Shown piece by piece: positions 39,001-45,000 of a stretch of DNA of 62,656 nucleotides. The DNA is from a virus (taxonomy: Duplodnaviria > Heunggongvirae > Uroviricota > Caudoviricetes): the IMG/VR virus record IMGVR_UViG_637000105_000002. One strand, written 5' to 3'. The stretch's first letter is position 1, and each line of letters opens with the position of its first letter. A program made the position numbers.

Positions 39001-42000
39001 AACTGGAAGAAGACATCCGTCAGCGGATGGACACGGATATCGCAGAAGTGACCCGGAAAATCGGGGAGGCGGAAAACAGCCTCACGCAGCTGGTTGCGAA
39101 AAAGAATGAGGACCAGACACTGGCCATCGCGCAGGTGAGCCAGAAAGTGGACCGGGTGAGCAGTGAAATCTCACAGACTGTCAGCCAGGGGCAGTCAGAA
39201 AATGCCCGACAGATAGCACAGGTCCGCCAGTACGTGGATAAAAAAGGGAGTGAAATTACCTCGACCACGGATAAAAAACTGGGTGACCAGGCCGTGACCA
39301 TACAGCAAATCCAGCGGGTTCAGTCAGACACGCGCAATGAGCTGAATGCCATGTATATGCTGAAGGTGCAGAAAACAAAAAACGGTATTCCCTATGTGGC
39401 CGGGATTGGTGCGGGGATTGAGGATGTTGATGGTCAGACGCTGAGCAGTATTCTGCTGCAGGCTGACCGTATCGCGATGATTACCCCGGAGAATGGCAAC
39501 ACCACGCCGCTGTTTGTGGCGCAGGGGAATCAGCTGTTCATGAACGACGTGTTCCTGAAGCGACTGTTTGCGGTGAGCATCACGTCATCCGGCAATCCTC
39601 CTACGTTTTCCCTGACGCCGGATGGCAGGCTGGCAGCCCGCAATGCGGATATCAGTGGAGCCATCACGGCGAATACCGGCACGCTCAATAATGTCACCAT
39701 TAACGAGAACTGTGTCATCAGAGGGAAACTGTCTGCAAACCAGATTGAAGGCGATCTCGTTAAAACAGTGGGTAAGGCTTTCCCCCGTGACTCCCGTGCA
39801 CCGGAGAGGTGGCCATCAGGGACCATTACCGTCAGGGTTTATGACGATCAGCCGTTTGACCGGCAAATTGTTATTCCGGCGGTGGCATTCAGCGGTGCCA
39901 GACATGAGCGGGAGAATAACGATATTTATTCGTCATGCCGCCTGATAGTACGGAAAAACGGTGCTGAAATTTATAACCGTACCGCGCTGGATAATACGCT
40001 GGTTTACAGTGGTGTTATTGATATGCCTGCTGGTCGCGGCCACATGACGCTGGAGTTTTCTGTATCAGCATGGTGGGTAAATGGCTGGTATCCCACAGCA
40101 AGTATCAGCGATTTGCTGGTTGTTGTGATGAAGAAAGCCACTGCAGGCATCACGATTAGCTGAATTTTATAACCCCAATACGGGCGCCAGAAATGGCGCC
40201 TTTTTTATTGCAGAAAAGCGAGAGGTAATTATGCGTAAATTATGTGCTGTTATTCTGTCCGCAGTAGTCTGGCTGGTTGCCGCTGGTACGCCAGCGAGCG
40301 CAGCAGAGCATCAGTCCACACTAAGCGCCGGGTATCTTCAGACCCACACTGATATGCCAGGCAGCGATAATCTGAACGGGATTAACGTGAAATACCGTTA
40401 TGAGTTTACGGACGCGCTGGGGCTGATTACGTCCTTCAGTTATGCCAATGCTGAGGATGAGCAAAAAACGCACTACAGCGATACCCGCTGGCATGAAGAT
40501 TCCGTGCGTAACCGCTGGTTCAGCGTGATGGCGGGGCCATCTGTACGCGTGAATGAATGGTTCAGTGCTTATGCGATGGCAGGTGTGGCTTACAGCCGTG
40601 TGTCGACGTTCTCCGGGGATTATCTCCGCGTAACTGACAACAAGGGGAAAACGCACGATGTGCTGACCGGAAGTGATGACGATCGCCACAGCAACACGTC
40701 TCTGGCGTGGGGAGCTGGCGTGCAGTTTAACCCGACCGAATCCGTGACCATTGATATTGCTTATGAAGGTTCCGGTAGTGGCGACTGGCGAACGGATGCA
40801 TTTATTGTTGGTATCGGATACCGTTTCTGACAACAGACGCCGATTTATCTTCTGTAAATATTGTTATGATACGCAGGTTCATCCGCCTTATGGGGTGAAC
40901 TGCGTTTGAGGAAACGTAAAGTTACACTGTCCTGAAGCCCGTGGCGTCACTGCTGCGGGCTTTTTTTATTGGTGGAAAAGTATGACAGTAAAAATTTCTG
41001 GCGTGCTTAAAGATGGCACAGGAAAACCAGTACAGAACTGCACCATTGTGCTGAAGGCCAGACGGACCAGCAGCACGGTGGTGGTGAACACGGTGGCCTC
41101 TGAAAATCCGGATGAAGCCGGGCGTTACAGCATGGATGTTGAGTATGGCCAGTACAGCGTCACCCTGCTGGTTGAAGATTTTCCGCCTTCACATGCCGGG
41201 ACCATTACCGTCTATGAAGGTTCCAGACCAGGTACGCTGAATGATTTTCTCGGCGCCATGACGGAGGATGATGTTCGTCCGGAGGCACTGCGCCGTTTTG
41301 AGCTGATGGTGAATGAAGTGGCACGTCATGCCGGAGCGTCATCACAGAGTGCAGCGGCGGCAAAGAAATCCGAAACGGCAGCAGCCTCATCGAAGAATGC
41401 GGCGAAAACCTCAGAAACGAATGCAGCTAACAGCGCACAGGCGGCAGCGGCCTCGCAGACTGCATCGGCAAACTCCGCGACAGCAGCCAAAAAATCAGAA
41501 ACCAGCGCGAAAAATAGCGAGACAGCCACAAAGGCCAGCGAAAAAAACGCAAAATCCAGCCAGACGGCAGCGAAAACCAGTGAGACGAATGCCAAAGACA
41601 GTGAAGCCAACGCAAAGGTGAGCGAAACAGCGGCGGCGAACTCGGCGAAAGCATCGGCAGCAAGCCAGACGGCAGCAAAAGCAAGTGAAGATGCTGCCAG
41701 AGAATACGCAAACCAGACAGCAGAGCCGTACAGATATGTTTTACAGCCGCTGCCGGATGTGTGGATACCCTTTAATGATTCGCTGGATATGATTACGGGC
41801 TATTCTCCGGGTTATAAAAAAGTGAAGATTGGTGATAATGTGGTTCAGGTTGCCAGTGATAAACAGGTTAATTTCAGTCGCGCATCAACGGCAACATATA
41901 TCAACAAATCTGGCGAACTGAAAACGGCGGAAATTAATGAGCCGCGATTTGAGTGTGATGGCCTGCTTATTGAGGGACAAAGAACGAACTTCTTCCAGAA

Positions 42001-45000
42001 CAGTACAGACCCTTCGAAGTGGAATAAGTCAACTTCACTGGACGTTACAGAAACAGGCACAGATAGTTTCGGGTTTAATTATGGTCGGTTTGTCGTACAG
42101 GATTCGATTGTTGGTACAAGTAAAGCGCATACCATTATCGGACTGTATTCGAGTACCGGAGGGGTTGATACTTCAGGGGACGAAAAGCATGTAACTATAT
42201 CCTGTCGGGTAAAAAGTGAAGTTGATAATATCGCCGTTCGTATTTTATTTGAACATTATGATGGGGAGGTAAGGACATCAATAGGAGCAGCAAACCTGAA
42301 CCTTACCACCCGCATAATTAGCAAGACAGGTCAGACAAGCCGTGTTACAGCAAGGTCTGTTAAGGATGATGCAACTGGCTGGATATTTTTTGAGGCTACA
42401 TTAAAAGCAGATACAACAGAAAATACGGTTGGTGGTTTTGTCCAGTATTCTCCGGATACAGGGCAGATGGTTACATCAGGGGATTATCTCGATGTAACCA
42501 CTCCACAGATTGAGGCTGGTACAGGCGCATCATCTTTTATTGTTACGGGGACGGCACCGGCAACGCGGGCAAGCGATATGGTGACAGTCCCAATCAAGAA
42601 TAACCTTTATAATCTTCCTTTTACGGTTCTTTGTGAGGTACATAAGAACTGGTATAAAACGCCAAATGTAGCGCCGCGTGTTTTTGATACCGGCGGTCAT
42701 CAAACCGGAGCGGGGATCGTAATGGGGTTTGGTTCATCAGGTGGGTACGACGGTTTTCCGTATTGCGATATAGGTGGTTCAGACCGACGAATAAATGAAA
42801 ATGCCGGGCTGGAAAAAATGCTTATTGGTATGCGGGTAAAGTCCGAACGGTCCACATGTGTAGTCAGTAACGGTAAGTTAAGCAGCGAAACTAAAACCAA
42901 ATGGGAATATATCCGGAGTACAGCAACCATTCGCATTGGTGGACAAACTACAGCAGGATTACGCCATTTATTTGGGCATGTGAGGAATTTTCGTCTCTGG
43001 CATAAAGAGCTAACAGATGCGCAGCTTGGGGAGGTTGTGGAGTGAGAGATTTCACGTTGCGTTTCAGTGATAAAGCAGATTTCAGGGCATTTCTCAGGAA
43101 ACTTAACTGGGAAGAGGACGAAGAGCTGCAGAATGCCGTTCTGGTTGATGAGATTGGTTTTACGTTCAGGGAGACAGATGTTTCTGATGACGGAGAACCA
43201 GAATACACGCGAAACGAAGGGTACTTTGTTAATATCCGTCTTCTTGACGATGGATTTGAGGATTCCGTGTTCCGTGAGTGGGTGGTTACACCAGAGCGCC
43301 CGCTCAGGGAGTGGTTTTAAGGATAGCAGATGGATATCACGTCGATACTTCATGCGCTTTGTGCCGTGGCGGTGCAGGTACTGGCTGGTCTTTTTACCGG
43401 AAACTGGGCTTACGGGGCGATAGCCGGTTGTACGTTCTTCATTGCGCGTGAACACACCCAGGCAGAATATCGCTGGATTGAAATGTTCGGGCATGGCAAG
43501 CGGATTAACATGCCGTGGTGGGGCGGTTTTGATCCACGTGCATGGGATGTGGCAAGCCTGATGGATTTTGCTGTGCCGGTGGTGGCGTGTCTGCTGGTCT
43601 GGCTGTTGGTTAATCGTGGGTGAAAAAGGTGAGCAGTATATGCAACGAAGGAGGAAACATCATTGCTGGCGGCATGGAAGGCATGCAGGGTGTTGCTGAA
43701 CCGTGTTGATACATCAACTGCCCCTGATATTGAGTGGCCTGTGAACCCTGTCAGAGAGTAATCATTGGGATTATGCCGCAGCACGTCGTGCGCAAGAACG
43801 TGCTGCGGCTGGATGCTATTTTTTCCCTGAAGCGGAAAACATTACTACAGTACCTTTAACCTTGGTTTTAACATTCTCGAAATGCTCTGAGAGTATATGT
43901 GTTAAGCCTTCTTCGGAATCTTTTGTGTTTGAAAAGATGCCTTTCTGATTGTAAATGCGCATCAGTTTTTGACCGAAGCTATTGTGCACAACGCCGTCAC
44001 CAAGAATTGTGGCTCCGTATAGAGTTCCATCGTCAGTTAAGGCCTGCGCCGCATTGCGTATTACACAGCTTTTTGTAGATATATTTCCAGGCAGGCAGTG
44101 AAGAAGGTAAAACATGGAAATGGAATCAAATTGACCATGTAACGCCGCGGGATAAGGATCAAAAACATCATGGCTAATTTTATGTTTAATTTTTGATTCC
44201 CCAGCCCTTGTCGATGCCGCGTTCAGGCTAGCTTCGTTCAAATCCATTAAAGATATCAGACTGCTCTCAGGTACGTGAGTAAGGTAAAACCCAGTTCCAA
44301 CGCCAATATCCAGATGGTTGTTACCTAAATGTTCCAGAAAGTGTGGAAGAAGGTGTTCCTTTGTAGGACATCCCCATGCAAGCCGATTTGATACTCCCAA
44401 AACCCACCAGTCATAAAGCTTTAGGGTAAGTGGTGTGTAAATTTTAGCCCCATCATCTGTGTTTTTTTTCATTAGTTTCACCGTATTATAGTTTTATTTG
44501 TGAATTAAATCAATTATGGCGATGAATTACAAGGGGTTAAATGCTGCCGCAGCATAGCGATATTGAAATAGCCTGGTATGCTTCGATACAGCAGGAGCCG
44601 AATGGCTGGAAGACCGTCACCACACAGTTCTACATCCAGGAATTCAGTGAGTATATTGCGCCACTGCAGGATGCTGTAGATCTGGAAATCGCAACGGAGG
44701 AAGAAAGATCGTTGCTGGAGGCATGGAATAAATATCGGGTATTGTTGAATCGTGTTGATACATCAACTGCACCTGATATTGAGTGGCCGACTTCACCTGC
44801 AGAGTAATCAACGGCGCAGGGATGATATTTTGTGCTTGAAGTGCCTCCCCGACCATTCAGATAGTCGGGGAGGGGTATTGGGATTATACGCAATCAGTTT
44901 TAGTTAAAGACCGAAGCTCTCGAAAAATCTTTCTCCAAAACCAGAATGGAATTGATTGATTTTGATAGGATCTATAACGTCGTTACCTTAAACGGCAAAA

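Follow-up and report, generated by a model that had tools for sequence, protein, structure and literature searches.

The closest described counterparts of the locus analysed here are the Stf/Tfa side tail fibre of lambda, the proximal fibre Gp22 of the T5-like phage IrisVonRoten (Bas32), the RcGTA head spike fibre Rcc01080 (GhsB), and the branched lateral fibres LtfA/LtfB of the T5-like phages DT57C and DT571/2. Gp22 carries a protruding galectin-like domain, and the published description of IrisVonRoten assigns no role to the 92-aa protein (Gp23) encoded beside it (PMC11990801). The RcGTA head spike fibre binds the R. capsulatus capsule (PMC7296036, PMC10218006); the model deposited for the head spike fibre domain is a computed one and not an experimental structure (PMC7296036). 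LtfA/LtfB consist of a proximal fibre bearing a distal fibre.

The window (the whole stretch of DNA analysed, 62,656 nt) was a lambdoid prophage of E. coli CFT073, adjacent to potB and 100% identical to CFT073. Its tail-fibre cassette contained stf (40982-43045; product Stf, 687 aa) and two small genes encoding a 92-aa acidic protein and a 97-aa membrane protein; all three ORFs were found as placed in the preliminary description and agreed with the RefSeq annotation of CFT073. Full-length PHROG HMM matches were obtained to phrog_1419 (tail protein; E = 0), phrog_1361 (E = 1.3e-40), and phrog_1443 (E = 6e-58), the latter two being families of unknown function in PHROG. The features of the cassette and its downstream flank were as follows:

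40982..41374, + strand: stf N-terminal virion-attachment domain of lambda Stf type, residues 1-131 (PF08400, PDB 9e7m, lambda orf-401)
41333..41716, + strand: stf Ala/Ser/Thr/Lys/Glu-rich heptad-periodic shaft, residues ~118-245 (composition, SE[TAKD] spacing)
41744..41785, + strand: stf junction motif QPLPDVWIPFNDSL, residues 255-268, start of the exchangeable tip (conservation, tblastn)
41873..42616, + strand: stf GTA head-spike-fibre-like domain, residues ~298-545 (NCBIfam NF048003, PDB 6tb9_F3)
42617..43045, + strand: stf conserved terminal domain and stop codon, residues ~546-687 (sub-threshold PF13385, galectin-like homologue)
43042..43320, + strand: gene for the 92-aa acidic protein, phrog_1361 (overlap with stf stop, Shine-Dalgarno, homologues)
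43330..43623, + strand: gene for the 97-aa membrane protein, phrog_1443 (Shine-Dalgarno, AF2, hydropathy, contexts)
43642..43761, + strand: tfa 3' remnant 1, pseudogene (RefSeq 'tail fiber assembly protein, missing N-terminus')
43816..44481, - strand: class I SAM-dependent methyltransferase gene between the tfa remnants (Pfam methyltransferase domains, phrog_2132)
44541..44807, + strand: tfa 3' remnant 2, 88-aa ORF (PF02413; RefSeq pseudogene 44634-44807)

Compared to lambda, the CFT073 cassette had the same position after J and lom, a related Stf N-terminal domain, the same type of shaft, and a small gene beginning at the fibre stop codon, but its tip was unrelated to orf-314, its small protein was unrelated to Tfa, and only tfa fragments were found downstream. 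Compared to IrisVonRoten, the Stf tip was 61% identical to the last ~445 residues of Gp22, and the small protein was 46% identical to the 92-aa homologue Gp23, which had the same overlapping start, while IrisVonRoten displayed a T5-type N-terminal anchor and, downstream of the small gene, a gene for a T-shaped distal fibre (Gp24), and lacked a 97-aa gene. Rcc01080 was clearly homologous in sequence to Stf residues ~298-545, but it sits as a single chain on the capsid pentons instead of ending a tail fibre, and has no terminal LamG-like domain. The proximal/distal arrangement of LtfA/LtfB resembled the order Stf, small gene, and distal fibre seen in relatives of the CFT073 cassette, but LtfA/LtfB end in autocleaving Peptidase_S74 chaperone domains not homologous to the CFT073 tip, and CFT073 has no distal fibre.

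The account we favour, and hold to be moderately probable, combines a modular Stf tip with a 92-aa partner, an independently mobile 97-aa gene, and tfa scars, making the CFT073 cassette an ordinary and widespread lateral tail-fibre cassette that stands last in a lambdoid prophage's late operon. Stf would attach to the tail through its lambda-type N-terminal domain, extend through its heptad-repeat shaft, and end in an exchangeable tip composed of the GTA head-spike-fibre-like domain plus what is probably a ConA/LamG-like domain. Judging by the analogous RcGTA head spike fibre and T5-like and T1-like lateral fibres, this tip would most likely bind a surface polysaccharide (O-antigen or capsule) reversibly. 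The 92-aa protein, translationally coupled to stf at the position of lambda tfa, would be the dedicated partner of the tip, co-inherited with it in temperate and virulent phages and either aiding its folding or assembly or remaining bound to it, a functional analogue of Tfa and not a homologue. The 97-aa gene would be an independent mobile gene for an inner-membrane protein, settling after receptor-binding genes of any fold; in CFT073 it would have no promoter of its own and be transcribed with stf, and our best guess is that it acts at the membrane, on either the host envelope or the entry of phages. In related phages the gene behind the 92-aa gene encodes a distal fibre with a conserved N-terminus, and in CFT073 the 97-aa gene fills that slot.

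The three parts of Stf were readily delimited. PF08400 (prophage tail fibre N-terminal; tail anchor) matched residues 1-131 over the whole profile length (E = 1.3e-67), PDB 9e7m 'Tail fiber protein' matched residues 1-94 (E = 2.4e-47), and residues 1-158 were 73% identical to lambda orf-401, which bears out the lambda N-terminus proposed previously. In the shaft, A/S/T/K/E/N/Q accounted for 83% of residues ~118-245, and SE[TAKD] motifs at residues 130, 144, 172, 179, 186, 200, 207, 214, and 235 were spaced by multiples of 7, suggesting a coiled coil; matches to the corresponding tract of orf-401 were weak. The repeat tract reported in the preliminary description thus held at the protein level but not at the DNA level, where Tandem Repeats Finder detected no tandem repeat under the shaft. 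The C-terminus did differ from that of lambda Stf, as first described: comparison with orf-314 (C-terminal half of lambda Stf) gave no similarity (best E = 1.3), and the non-lambda part comprised about 430 residues from motif QPLPDVWIPFNDSL onward, the point at which tblastn matches to the tip also began; this motif was kept in the fibres of ten phages from six groups.

Within the tip, NF048003 matched residues 329-530 (E = 9.9e-19, 68.6 bits versus a cutoff of 36), and the tip-domain profile matched PDB 6tb9_F3 (Rcc01080) with E = 7e-23. This GTA head-spike-fibre-like domain, presumed to be glycan binding by analogy with RcGTA, the one case in which polysaccharide binding by this domain is known, was the most variable part of the tip, with 43-50% identity between phages whose terminal domains were 72-81% identical. 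The terminal domain is probably ConA/LamG-like, its PF13385 (Laminin_G_3) scores lying below the Pfam threshold: residues 630-681 gave E = 0.0037 and 17.9 bits versus a gathering threshold of 27.6, and all nine homologues compared (9/9) matched sub-threshold as well (best E = 2.1e-7). The tip of IrisVonRoten Gp22, with its galectin-like domain (see above), is homologous to the Stf tip.

The 92-aa ORF started with GTG, overlapping the stf stop as GTGA, with the Shine-Dalgarno sequence GGGGAGG 7 nt upstream, and its product (pI = 4.3; AF2 mean pLDDT = 85.5) had 264 homologues, all unnamed, and no Pfam family. The 97-aa ORF started 9 nt past the 92-aa stop with the Shine-Dalgarno sequence AAGGA. 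Both genes were under purifying selection (dN/dS = 0.30 and 0.12-0.20, respectively), and this conserved coding, together with the Shine-Dalgarno sites, the GTGA overlap, and hundreds to thousands of homologues, marked them as real genes. The cassette was common, its small genes being annotated "hypothetical": of 5426 complete E. coli genomes, 363 carried the exact CFT073 junction of the 92-aa and 97-aa genes, and the arrangement was also carried by viable phages such as ev243, so that it is not novel in occurrence. For CFT073 itself the finding is an ordinary one, a standard side-fibre cassette that is probably functional.

Searches by tblastn recovered the tip module at near full length from 201 phage records and the 92-aa gene from 196, with both occurring in virulent T1-like, T5-like, Dhillonvirus, Queuovirinae, and rV5-like phages. 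In all 16 records common to both lists (16/16), spanning six phage groups with strictly virulent ones included, tip and 92-aa gene were adjacent with a gap of <=21 nt; the fibre stop and 92-aa start overlapped or abutted in 8 of 10 phages, with the Shine-Dalgarno sequence within the last fibre codons. The 92-aa protein diverged in step with the tip (Mantel r = 0.83 and 0.79, p <= 0.001, n = 10), although this correlation and the linkage itself could reflect mere physical proximity on the DNA. The claim that the protein has no obvious Tfa similarity was upheld, HMM, profile-profile, and fold comparisons with Tfa/Caudo_TAP (PF02413) all being null, and a Tfa homologue was thereby ruled out; the 97-aa protein is not a Tfa either. 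What the 92-aa protein shared with Tfa was the layout, its gene coming immediately behind that of the fibre, coupled to it in translation and inherited along with the tip, which denotes functional analogy only. From these features we infer that it is a fibre accessory dedicated to this tip and distinct from Tfa, acting as a chaperone or forming a subunit.

The 97-aa protein was predicted to form three helices (AF2 mean pLDDT = 93.4), two strongly and one moderately hydrophobic. Its family comprised 2437 homologues from several Proteobacteria with no Pfam domain, and members from different genera were still 55-60% identical, many polar residues being invariant (H8, R40, E41, Q44, E46, Y47, R48, and D79), a pattern equally compatible with an enzyme or with a site for a specific ligand. 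The gene adjoined fibre or tailspike genes in 12 of 13 contexts examined, the genes just upstream having pectate-lyase, Peptidase_S74, P22-type, or Phage_tail_fib folds. It occurred without the 92-aa gene in P22-like and P2/HP1-like phages and other prophages, where it followed unrelated tailspikes or fibres, and it lay between tailspike genes on a ~160-kb contig that, from its size and gene content, appears to be a large virulent myovirus. Conversely, the virulent T1-like, T5-like, Dhillonvirus, Queuovirinae, and rV5-like carriers of the 92-aa gene had no 97-aa gene beside it, and with these independent distributions the two did not form the coupled pair or single module proposed earlier; the suggested fibre-accessory role survived for the 92-aa protein, given its strict linkage to the tip, but not for a pair with the 97-aa protein.

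Other explanations of the small genes were weighed against this account. The 92-aa protein might be a structural adaptor on the proximal fibre tip that docks a second, distal fibre to give a branched fibre, a reading we regard as unlikely and under which the protein would be a leftover or cap in CFT073, which has no distal fibre gene. It draws on genes sharing the N-terminus M.T.T.IP.DIT.LKN, which followed the 92-aa homologue in 7 of 10 phages compared; in 2G7b/Tritos, IrisVonRoten, BRET, VogelGryff, KarlBarth, and tuinn they did so at a gap of 9-12 nt, or overlapping in VogelGryff, and most were annotated as fibre proteins, with a putative chaperone in VogelGryff and a hypothetical protein in tuinn. 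IME178 also held a fibre gene in this distal slot, without the motif, while the slot was filled by a terminator in FFH2 and by the 97-aa gene in CFT073. Moreover, the T-shaped distal fibre of IrisVonRoten was modelled by the BASEL authors as joined to the proximal fibre (PMC11990801), and branched fibres are established in DT57C (PMC4728585). Against docking, however, the 92-aa gene was retained under purifying selection where no distal fibre existed (CFT073, ev243, Perceval, and rV5-like FFH2), its divergence followed the variable receptor-binding domain and not the conserved distal N-terminus, and no virion proteomics was found for 92-aa homologues.

An exclusion or lysogenic-conversion module expressed from the prophage and comprising both small genes appears improbable. 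The end of the tail-fibre region, where the two genes lie, is a classical site of moron and exclusion genes (cor, HK97 gp15, and P22 conversion genes), and small membrane proteins are encoded near phage receptor-binding genes in T4 (Imm), HK97 (gp15), and P22 (SieA), as are small O-antigen polymerase inhibitors in D3 and epsilon15. The 97-aa protein resembles these proteins in being small, predicted to lie in the inner membrane, and encoded beside tail genes, but no sequence or profile similarity to them was detected, PADLOC, Pfam, and NCBIfam gave no match to described exclusion or defence families, and the gene differed from these types in having no promoter of its own here (no + strand promoter-like site between stf and the 97-aa gene) and in occurring on the contig resembling a large virulent phage. 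In Gally and 611R6, both P22-like, the homologue was flanked by the tailspike gene and int, and in Gally a terminator-like hairpin immediately following the tailspike gene preceded it; in published RNA-seq of LF82 the Gally homologue reached log2 6-8.7 in DMEM and macrophages, so the 97-aa protein may have a role in the lysogen. Yet in LB-grown LF82 lysogens the homologues of Perceval, Tritos, and Gally stayed at background without autonomous expression and did not behave as morons in this medium, with a rise in macrophages in two of the three (Perceval and Gally): Perceval, with the same stf-92-97 layout, showed background levels of all three genes in LB and raised them jointly in macrophages, while the Tritos homologue, downstream of a terminator, was silent in all five conditions. 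The independent distributions of the two genes and the commonness of the 92-aa gene in strictly virulent phages also speak against a joint exclusion module; the 97-aa protein by itself may or may not act in superinfection exclusion. Least probable of all is that the 97-aa protein is a holin- or antiholin-like late lysis or envelope-timing factor unrelated to receptors: its small size, its two to three hydrophobic helices, and its co-transcription with late genes would suit such a factor, and in a Comamonas prophage it precedes three small genes that may be a lysis cassette, but holin, lysozyme, and lysis-protein genes are already present in the CFT073 prophage at 16544-18449, outside of which the 97-aa gene lies, and its neighbours were receptor-binding and not lysis genes in 12 of the 13 contexts. 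Its cross-genus identity with many invariant polar residues is unusual for holins.

A broader joint reading, which we offer tentatively and think doubtful, makes the 92-aa protein an undescribed class of trans-acting tail-fibre chaperone/adaptor and the 97-aa protein a new inner-membrane class. Under it, (i) a lectin-type tip, the small protein, and an optional distal fibre would form a plug-and-play junction common to lambdoid, T1-like, T5-like, Dhillonvirus, Queuovirinae, and rV5-like phages, and (ii) the 97-aa protein would accompany receptor-binding genes that target glycans, in temperate as well as virulent phages, and would affect some conserved process of the envelope, perhaps by blocking surface-glycan export or phage DNA entry. 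Roughly 200 sequenced phages, several BASEL model phages among them, carry the fibre tip and small gene, yet the small protein is nameless; if it is needed for fibre assembly, it must accompany such fibres in host-range engineering swaps, and annotation pipelines could name it in place of 'hypothetical protein'. The 97-aa family offers a well-conserved and easily testable candidate phage function tied to receptor-binding modules.

Downstream of the 97-aa gene, the expectation that stf has no intact tfa beside it proved correct, the locus containing only two C-terminal fragments (43642-43761 and 44634-44807), which are recombination scars flanking the methyltransferase gene inserted between them. 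Remnant 2 matched PF02413 in its C-terminal part only (E = 3.9e-25) and was 77% identical to lambda Tfa residues 132-191, and the two remnants formed an 85% direct repeat. A sigma-70-like site (10/12) was located on the minus strand at the methyltransferase gene (44513..44485).

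The 4-kb region under study was 100% identical to E. coli CFT073, and the window started at a prophage integrase and extended to potB and potA across a lambdoid prophage that looked complete. The gene order from J onwards was as follows.

Gene order around stf (window coordinates)
36471-40163, + strand: J
40231-40830, + strand: lom
40982-43045, + strand: stf, side tail fibre gene (687 aa)
43042-43320, + strand: 92-aa gene (acidic protein), hereafter the small gene
43330-43623, + strand: 97-aa gene (membrane protein)
43642-43761, + strand: tfa fragment 1
43816-44481, - strand: SAM-methyltransferase (class I) gene
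44634-44807, + strand: tfa fragment 2
from 45039, - strand: potB

The same stf–92–97–methyltransferase–tfa block was present in the viable phage ev243 (97% identity), and also in PhiR49_2 and further induced ECOR phages. The early region (3954-10443) contained the Qin/Rac-like genes ydfD, dicB, ydfC, ydfB, ydfA, a YdaT-family gene, and hokD, so that the prophage combined lambda-like late genes with Qin-like early ones in a mosaic. The RefSeq annotation additionally placed an IS200C transposase gene (13687-14145) just 3' of the antitermination gene, followed by tRNA-Ile, tRNA-Arg, and tRNA-Arg genes (14291-14540).

The anchor of Stf was lambda-like: PF08400 matched residues 1-131, and residues 1-158 shared 73% identity with lambda orf-401. 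Residues ~118-245 were rich in Ala/Ser/Thr/Lys/Glu and displayed SE[TAKD] motifs at multiples-of-seven spacing, while Tandem Repeats Finder detected no DNA repeat in stf; the repeat tract of the preliminary description was therefore retained as a heptad pattern of the protein but not as a DNA repeat. The exchangeable module, or tip (the C-terminal ~430 residues), began at the conserved motif QPLPDVWIPFNDSL (residues 255-268), and its reported non-lambda character was borne out, since no likeness to lambda orf-314 was found anywhere in Stf.

Two parts of the tip gave informative matches: (i) residues 329-530 matched NCBIfam NF048003 'GTA head spike fiber' (68.6 bits; cutoff 36), and a profile of nine homologous tips matched the RcGTA head spike fibre Rcc01080 (E = 7e-23), which binds the Rhodobacter capsulatus capsule (PMC7296036, PMC10218006); and (ii) the last ~150 residues, the best-conserved part of the tip (72-81% identity among most relatives), gave sub-threshold matches to Laminin_G_3 (ConA-like superfamily) in 9/9 homologues, and the homologous end of Gp22 from IrisVonRoten, a T5-like BASEL phage, was described by the BASEL authors as a protruding galectin-like domain (PMC11990801). 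The tip is therefore composed of two lectin-like, or probably lectin-like, domains, and we infer that it binds O-antigen or capsule.

The small gene had a GTG start overlapping the stf stop (GTGA) with GGGGAGG as the upstream Shine-Dalgarno sequence, while the 97-aa gene, preceded by an AAGGA Shine-Dalgarno sequence, started 9 nt beyond the stop of the small gene. Both were under purifying selection (dN/dS 0.30 and 0.12-0.20, respectively) and were thus real coding genes. Together with the PF08400 match and the lambda-like N-terminus, these features confirmed the three-gene arrangement as first described.

The 92-aa protein matched no sequence in Pfam, NCBIfam, PADLOC, or PDB; it is not Tfa, in line with the lack of Tfa similarity noted earlier. 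It was assigned to phrog_1361 (function unknown), and a profile search gave 264 homologues, none of which was named; this count needed an alignment query, as a single-sequence word-index search returned close relatives only. An exhaustive search among 1.84 billion cluster representatives gave only 105 clusters for the profile; the very long proteins among these were of the PKD or TPR repeat kind, and those hits look spurious. The AlphaFold2 model was confident (mean pLDDT 85.5) and comprised a strand, two helices, four strands, and an extended C-terminal tail, on which the conserved P-x-R-x-W motif was located.

By tblastn against 50,697 phage records, the small gene was found in 196 and the tip module near full length in 201. 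In all 16 records common to both listings, the small gene started within 21 nt of the fibre end; among these records were temperate phages of the lambdoid type as well as virulent ones (T1-like, T5-like, Dhillonvirus, Seuratvirus/Nonagvirus, and rV5-like). The fibre stop and small-gene start overlapped or abutted in 8/10 phages compared. Pairwise divergence of the small protein was correlated with the divergence of both tip domains (Mantel r = 0.83, p = 4e-4 for the GTA-like domain; r = 0.79 for the terminal domain). Judged from these sequence comparisons, the 92-aa protein holds the position of Tfa and behaves as an obligatory partner of the tip; a role in lysogeny only was ruled out by the occurrence of its gene in virulent phages. 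No virion proteomics covering a 92-aa homologue was found in the literature: rV5 gp41 had a C-terminus of a different (K1F-type) kind, phiR2-01 had no detectable 92-aa homologue, and DT57C LtfA/LtfB represented a different fibre type. No paper describing either small protein was found, including by accession and PHROG id.

A further gene lay 3' of the small gene in 8 of the 10 phages compared, with a gap of 9-12 nt in seven and an overlap in VogelGryff. The contents of this slot were variable: (i) in 2G7b, IrisVonRoten, VogelGryff, KarlBarth, BRET, and tuinn, the following gene, mostly annotated as a fibre protein, encoded the N-terminus M.T.T.IP.DIT.LKN (at L003:5690, L004:6289, L005:5267, L011:4270, L013:4278, and L014:4292 of the phage loci), beyond which the products were diverse, and the annotated start in VogelGryff was four residues upstream of this N-terminus; (ii) IME178 had a fibre gene without it; (iii) FFH2 had a terminator; and (iv) CFT073 and ev243 had the 97-aa gene. 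The shared N-terminus is probably a common attachment motif of branched fibres, and the slot contents support an architecture of proximal fibre, small protein, and optional distal fibre. Within such an architecture, the small protein may alternatively be a docking adaptor for the distal fibre; however, the small gene was retained under selection in phages having no distal fibre, which argues for a primary role of its product at the proximal tip.

The 97-aa protein was assigned to phrog_1443; its sequence gave no Pfam match and nothing useful from NCBIfam, PADLOC, or PDB. Its 2437 homologues were distributed in Escherichia, Salmonella, Enterobacter, Citrobacter, Leclercia, Aeromonas, Comamonas, and Halomonas, with cross-genus identity typically of 55-60% and with H8, Q16, G29, R40, E41, Q44, E46, Y47, R48, G56, G66, F67, W72, D79, P83, and C87 invariant.

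Genomic contexts of 97-aa homologues
2G7b: 3' of distal fibre and hairpin terminator
P22-like Gally (E. coli LF82 prophage) and 611R6: flanked by tailspike gene and int
phiHAP-1: 3' of tail-fibre assembly gene
Aeromonas and Leclercia P2/HP1-like prophages: immediately 3' of tail fibre
Enterobacter and Citrobacter prophages: 3' of pectate-lyase tailspikes
Metagenomic prophage: 3' of Peptidase_S74 fibre
~160-kb Salmonella contig (L020:3398-8777): between two pectate-lyase-type tailspike genes
Comamonas prophage: 3' of gpJ and a 72-aa gene

Receptor-binding genes adjoined the 97-aa homologue in 12/13 contexts, the sole exception being Aeromonas phage 62AhydR11PP, whose adjoining genes were unannotated. 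These contexts depended neither on the 92-aa gene nor on the fibre fold. The small genes thus represent two separate modules, so that the proposed chaperone/accessory pair or superinfection-exclusion module was not upheld as a unit; we regard the CFT073 case as a tail fibre whose dedicated accessory, the small gene, comes from an undescribed family. The size and gene content of the ~160-kb contig suggest a large virulent myovirus, and the 97-aa family may therefore not be confined to temperate phages. A block of distal fibre 3' end, GGGGTCGAGCGCCCC hairpin plus T run, and 97-aa gene was common to 2G7b (L003:6727-6772) and 611R6 (L009:3958-4000), so transfer of the membrane gene from one phage type to another includes the sequence flanking it upstream.

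The interval between stf and the 97-aa gene had no sigma-70-like site on the + strand. A terminator-like hairpin (40934-40963; 13 pairs, then a T run) lay between lom and stf, suggesting dependence of stf and the small genes on antiterminated late transcription or on a separate start. Three homologue-carrying prophages of E. coli LF82 were covered by published strand-resolved RNA-seq data (PMC9928086). In Perceval, whose layout stf (688 aa)–92–97 matched that of CFT073, stf, 92, and 97 gave 6.7, 14.5, and 11.5 normalised counts in overnight LB (prophage median 7.1; moron cutoff 35.6); in macrophages they rose jointly (log2 5-5.8, 7-7.3, and 5.6-6.4, respectively), while J and lom remained at 2.3-3.6 (PMC9928086). 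In Tritos (stf–93–distal fibre–97), the stf, small, and distal-fibre genes were up, and the 97-aa homologue stayed at 2.8-3.8 across five conditions with no rise (PMC9928086), which fits the nearly identical 2G7b cassette, where a hairpin terminator sits directly 5' of the 97-aa gene. The Gally 97-aa homologue was at background in LB and at 6-8.7 in DMEM and macrophages (PMC9928086). Thus, the 97-aa gene in the lambdoid setting appears to lack its own promoter and does not look like a constitutive moron; it may be expressed conditionally in lysogens. A condition-dependent internal promoter within or upstream of stf is hinted at. In the S1/S4 tables of PMC9928086, stf and the small gene of Perceval and Tritos, along with the distal fibre gene of Tritos, were induced 8-fold to >30-fold in macrophages (window equivalent ~41000-43600), the small gene giving the strongest signal, with J, lom, and other late genes at background.

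The exact 92–97 junction was found in 363/5426 complete E. coli genomes, and 1819/5426 carried the 97-aa gene's 5' half. The arrangement was common, with both small genes annotated 'hypothetical'; it is ordinary for CFT073 and yields two well-defined, testable protein families.

Downstream of these genes, tfa 3' fragments formed direct repeats (43642-43739 and 44691-44788; 85% identity) bracketing the methyltransferase gene, and tfa fragment 2 shared 77% identity with residues 132-191 of lambda Tfa. This pattern fits module exchange in which the conserved 3' end of tfa served as the recombination site. The methyltransferase gene, with a 10/12 sigma-70-like promoter site (44513..44485, - strand), looks like a moron inserted through recombination at tfa. 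In LF82 lysogens, strong transcription is recorded (S4 table of PMC9928086) for a 666-bp gene that is annotated as ybcY and has a Qin tfa-like gene and ompT as neighbours.
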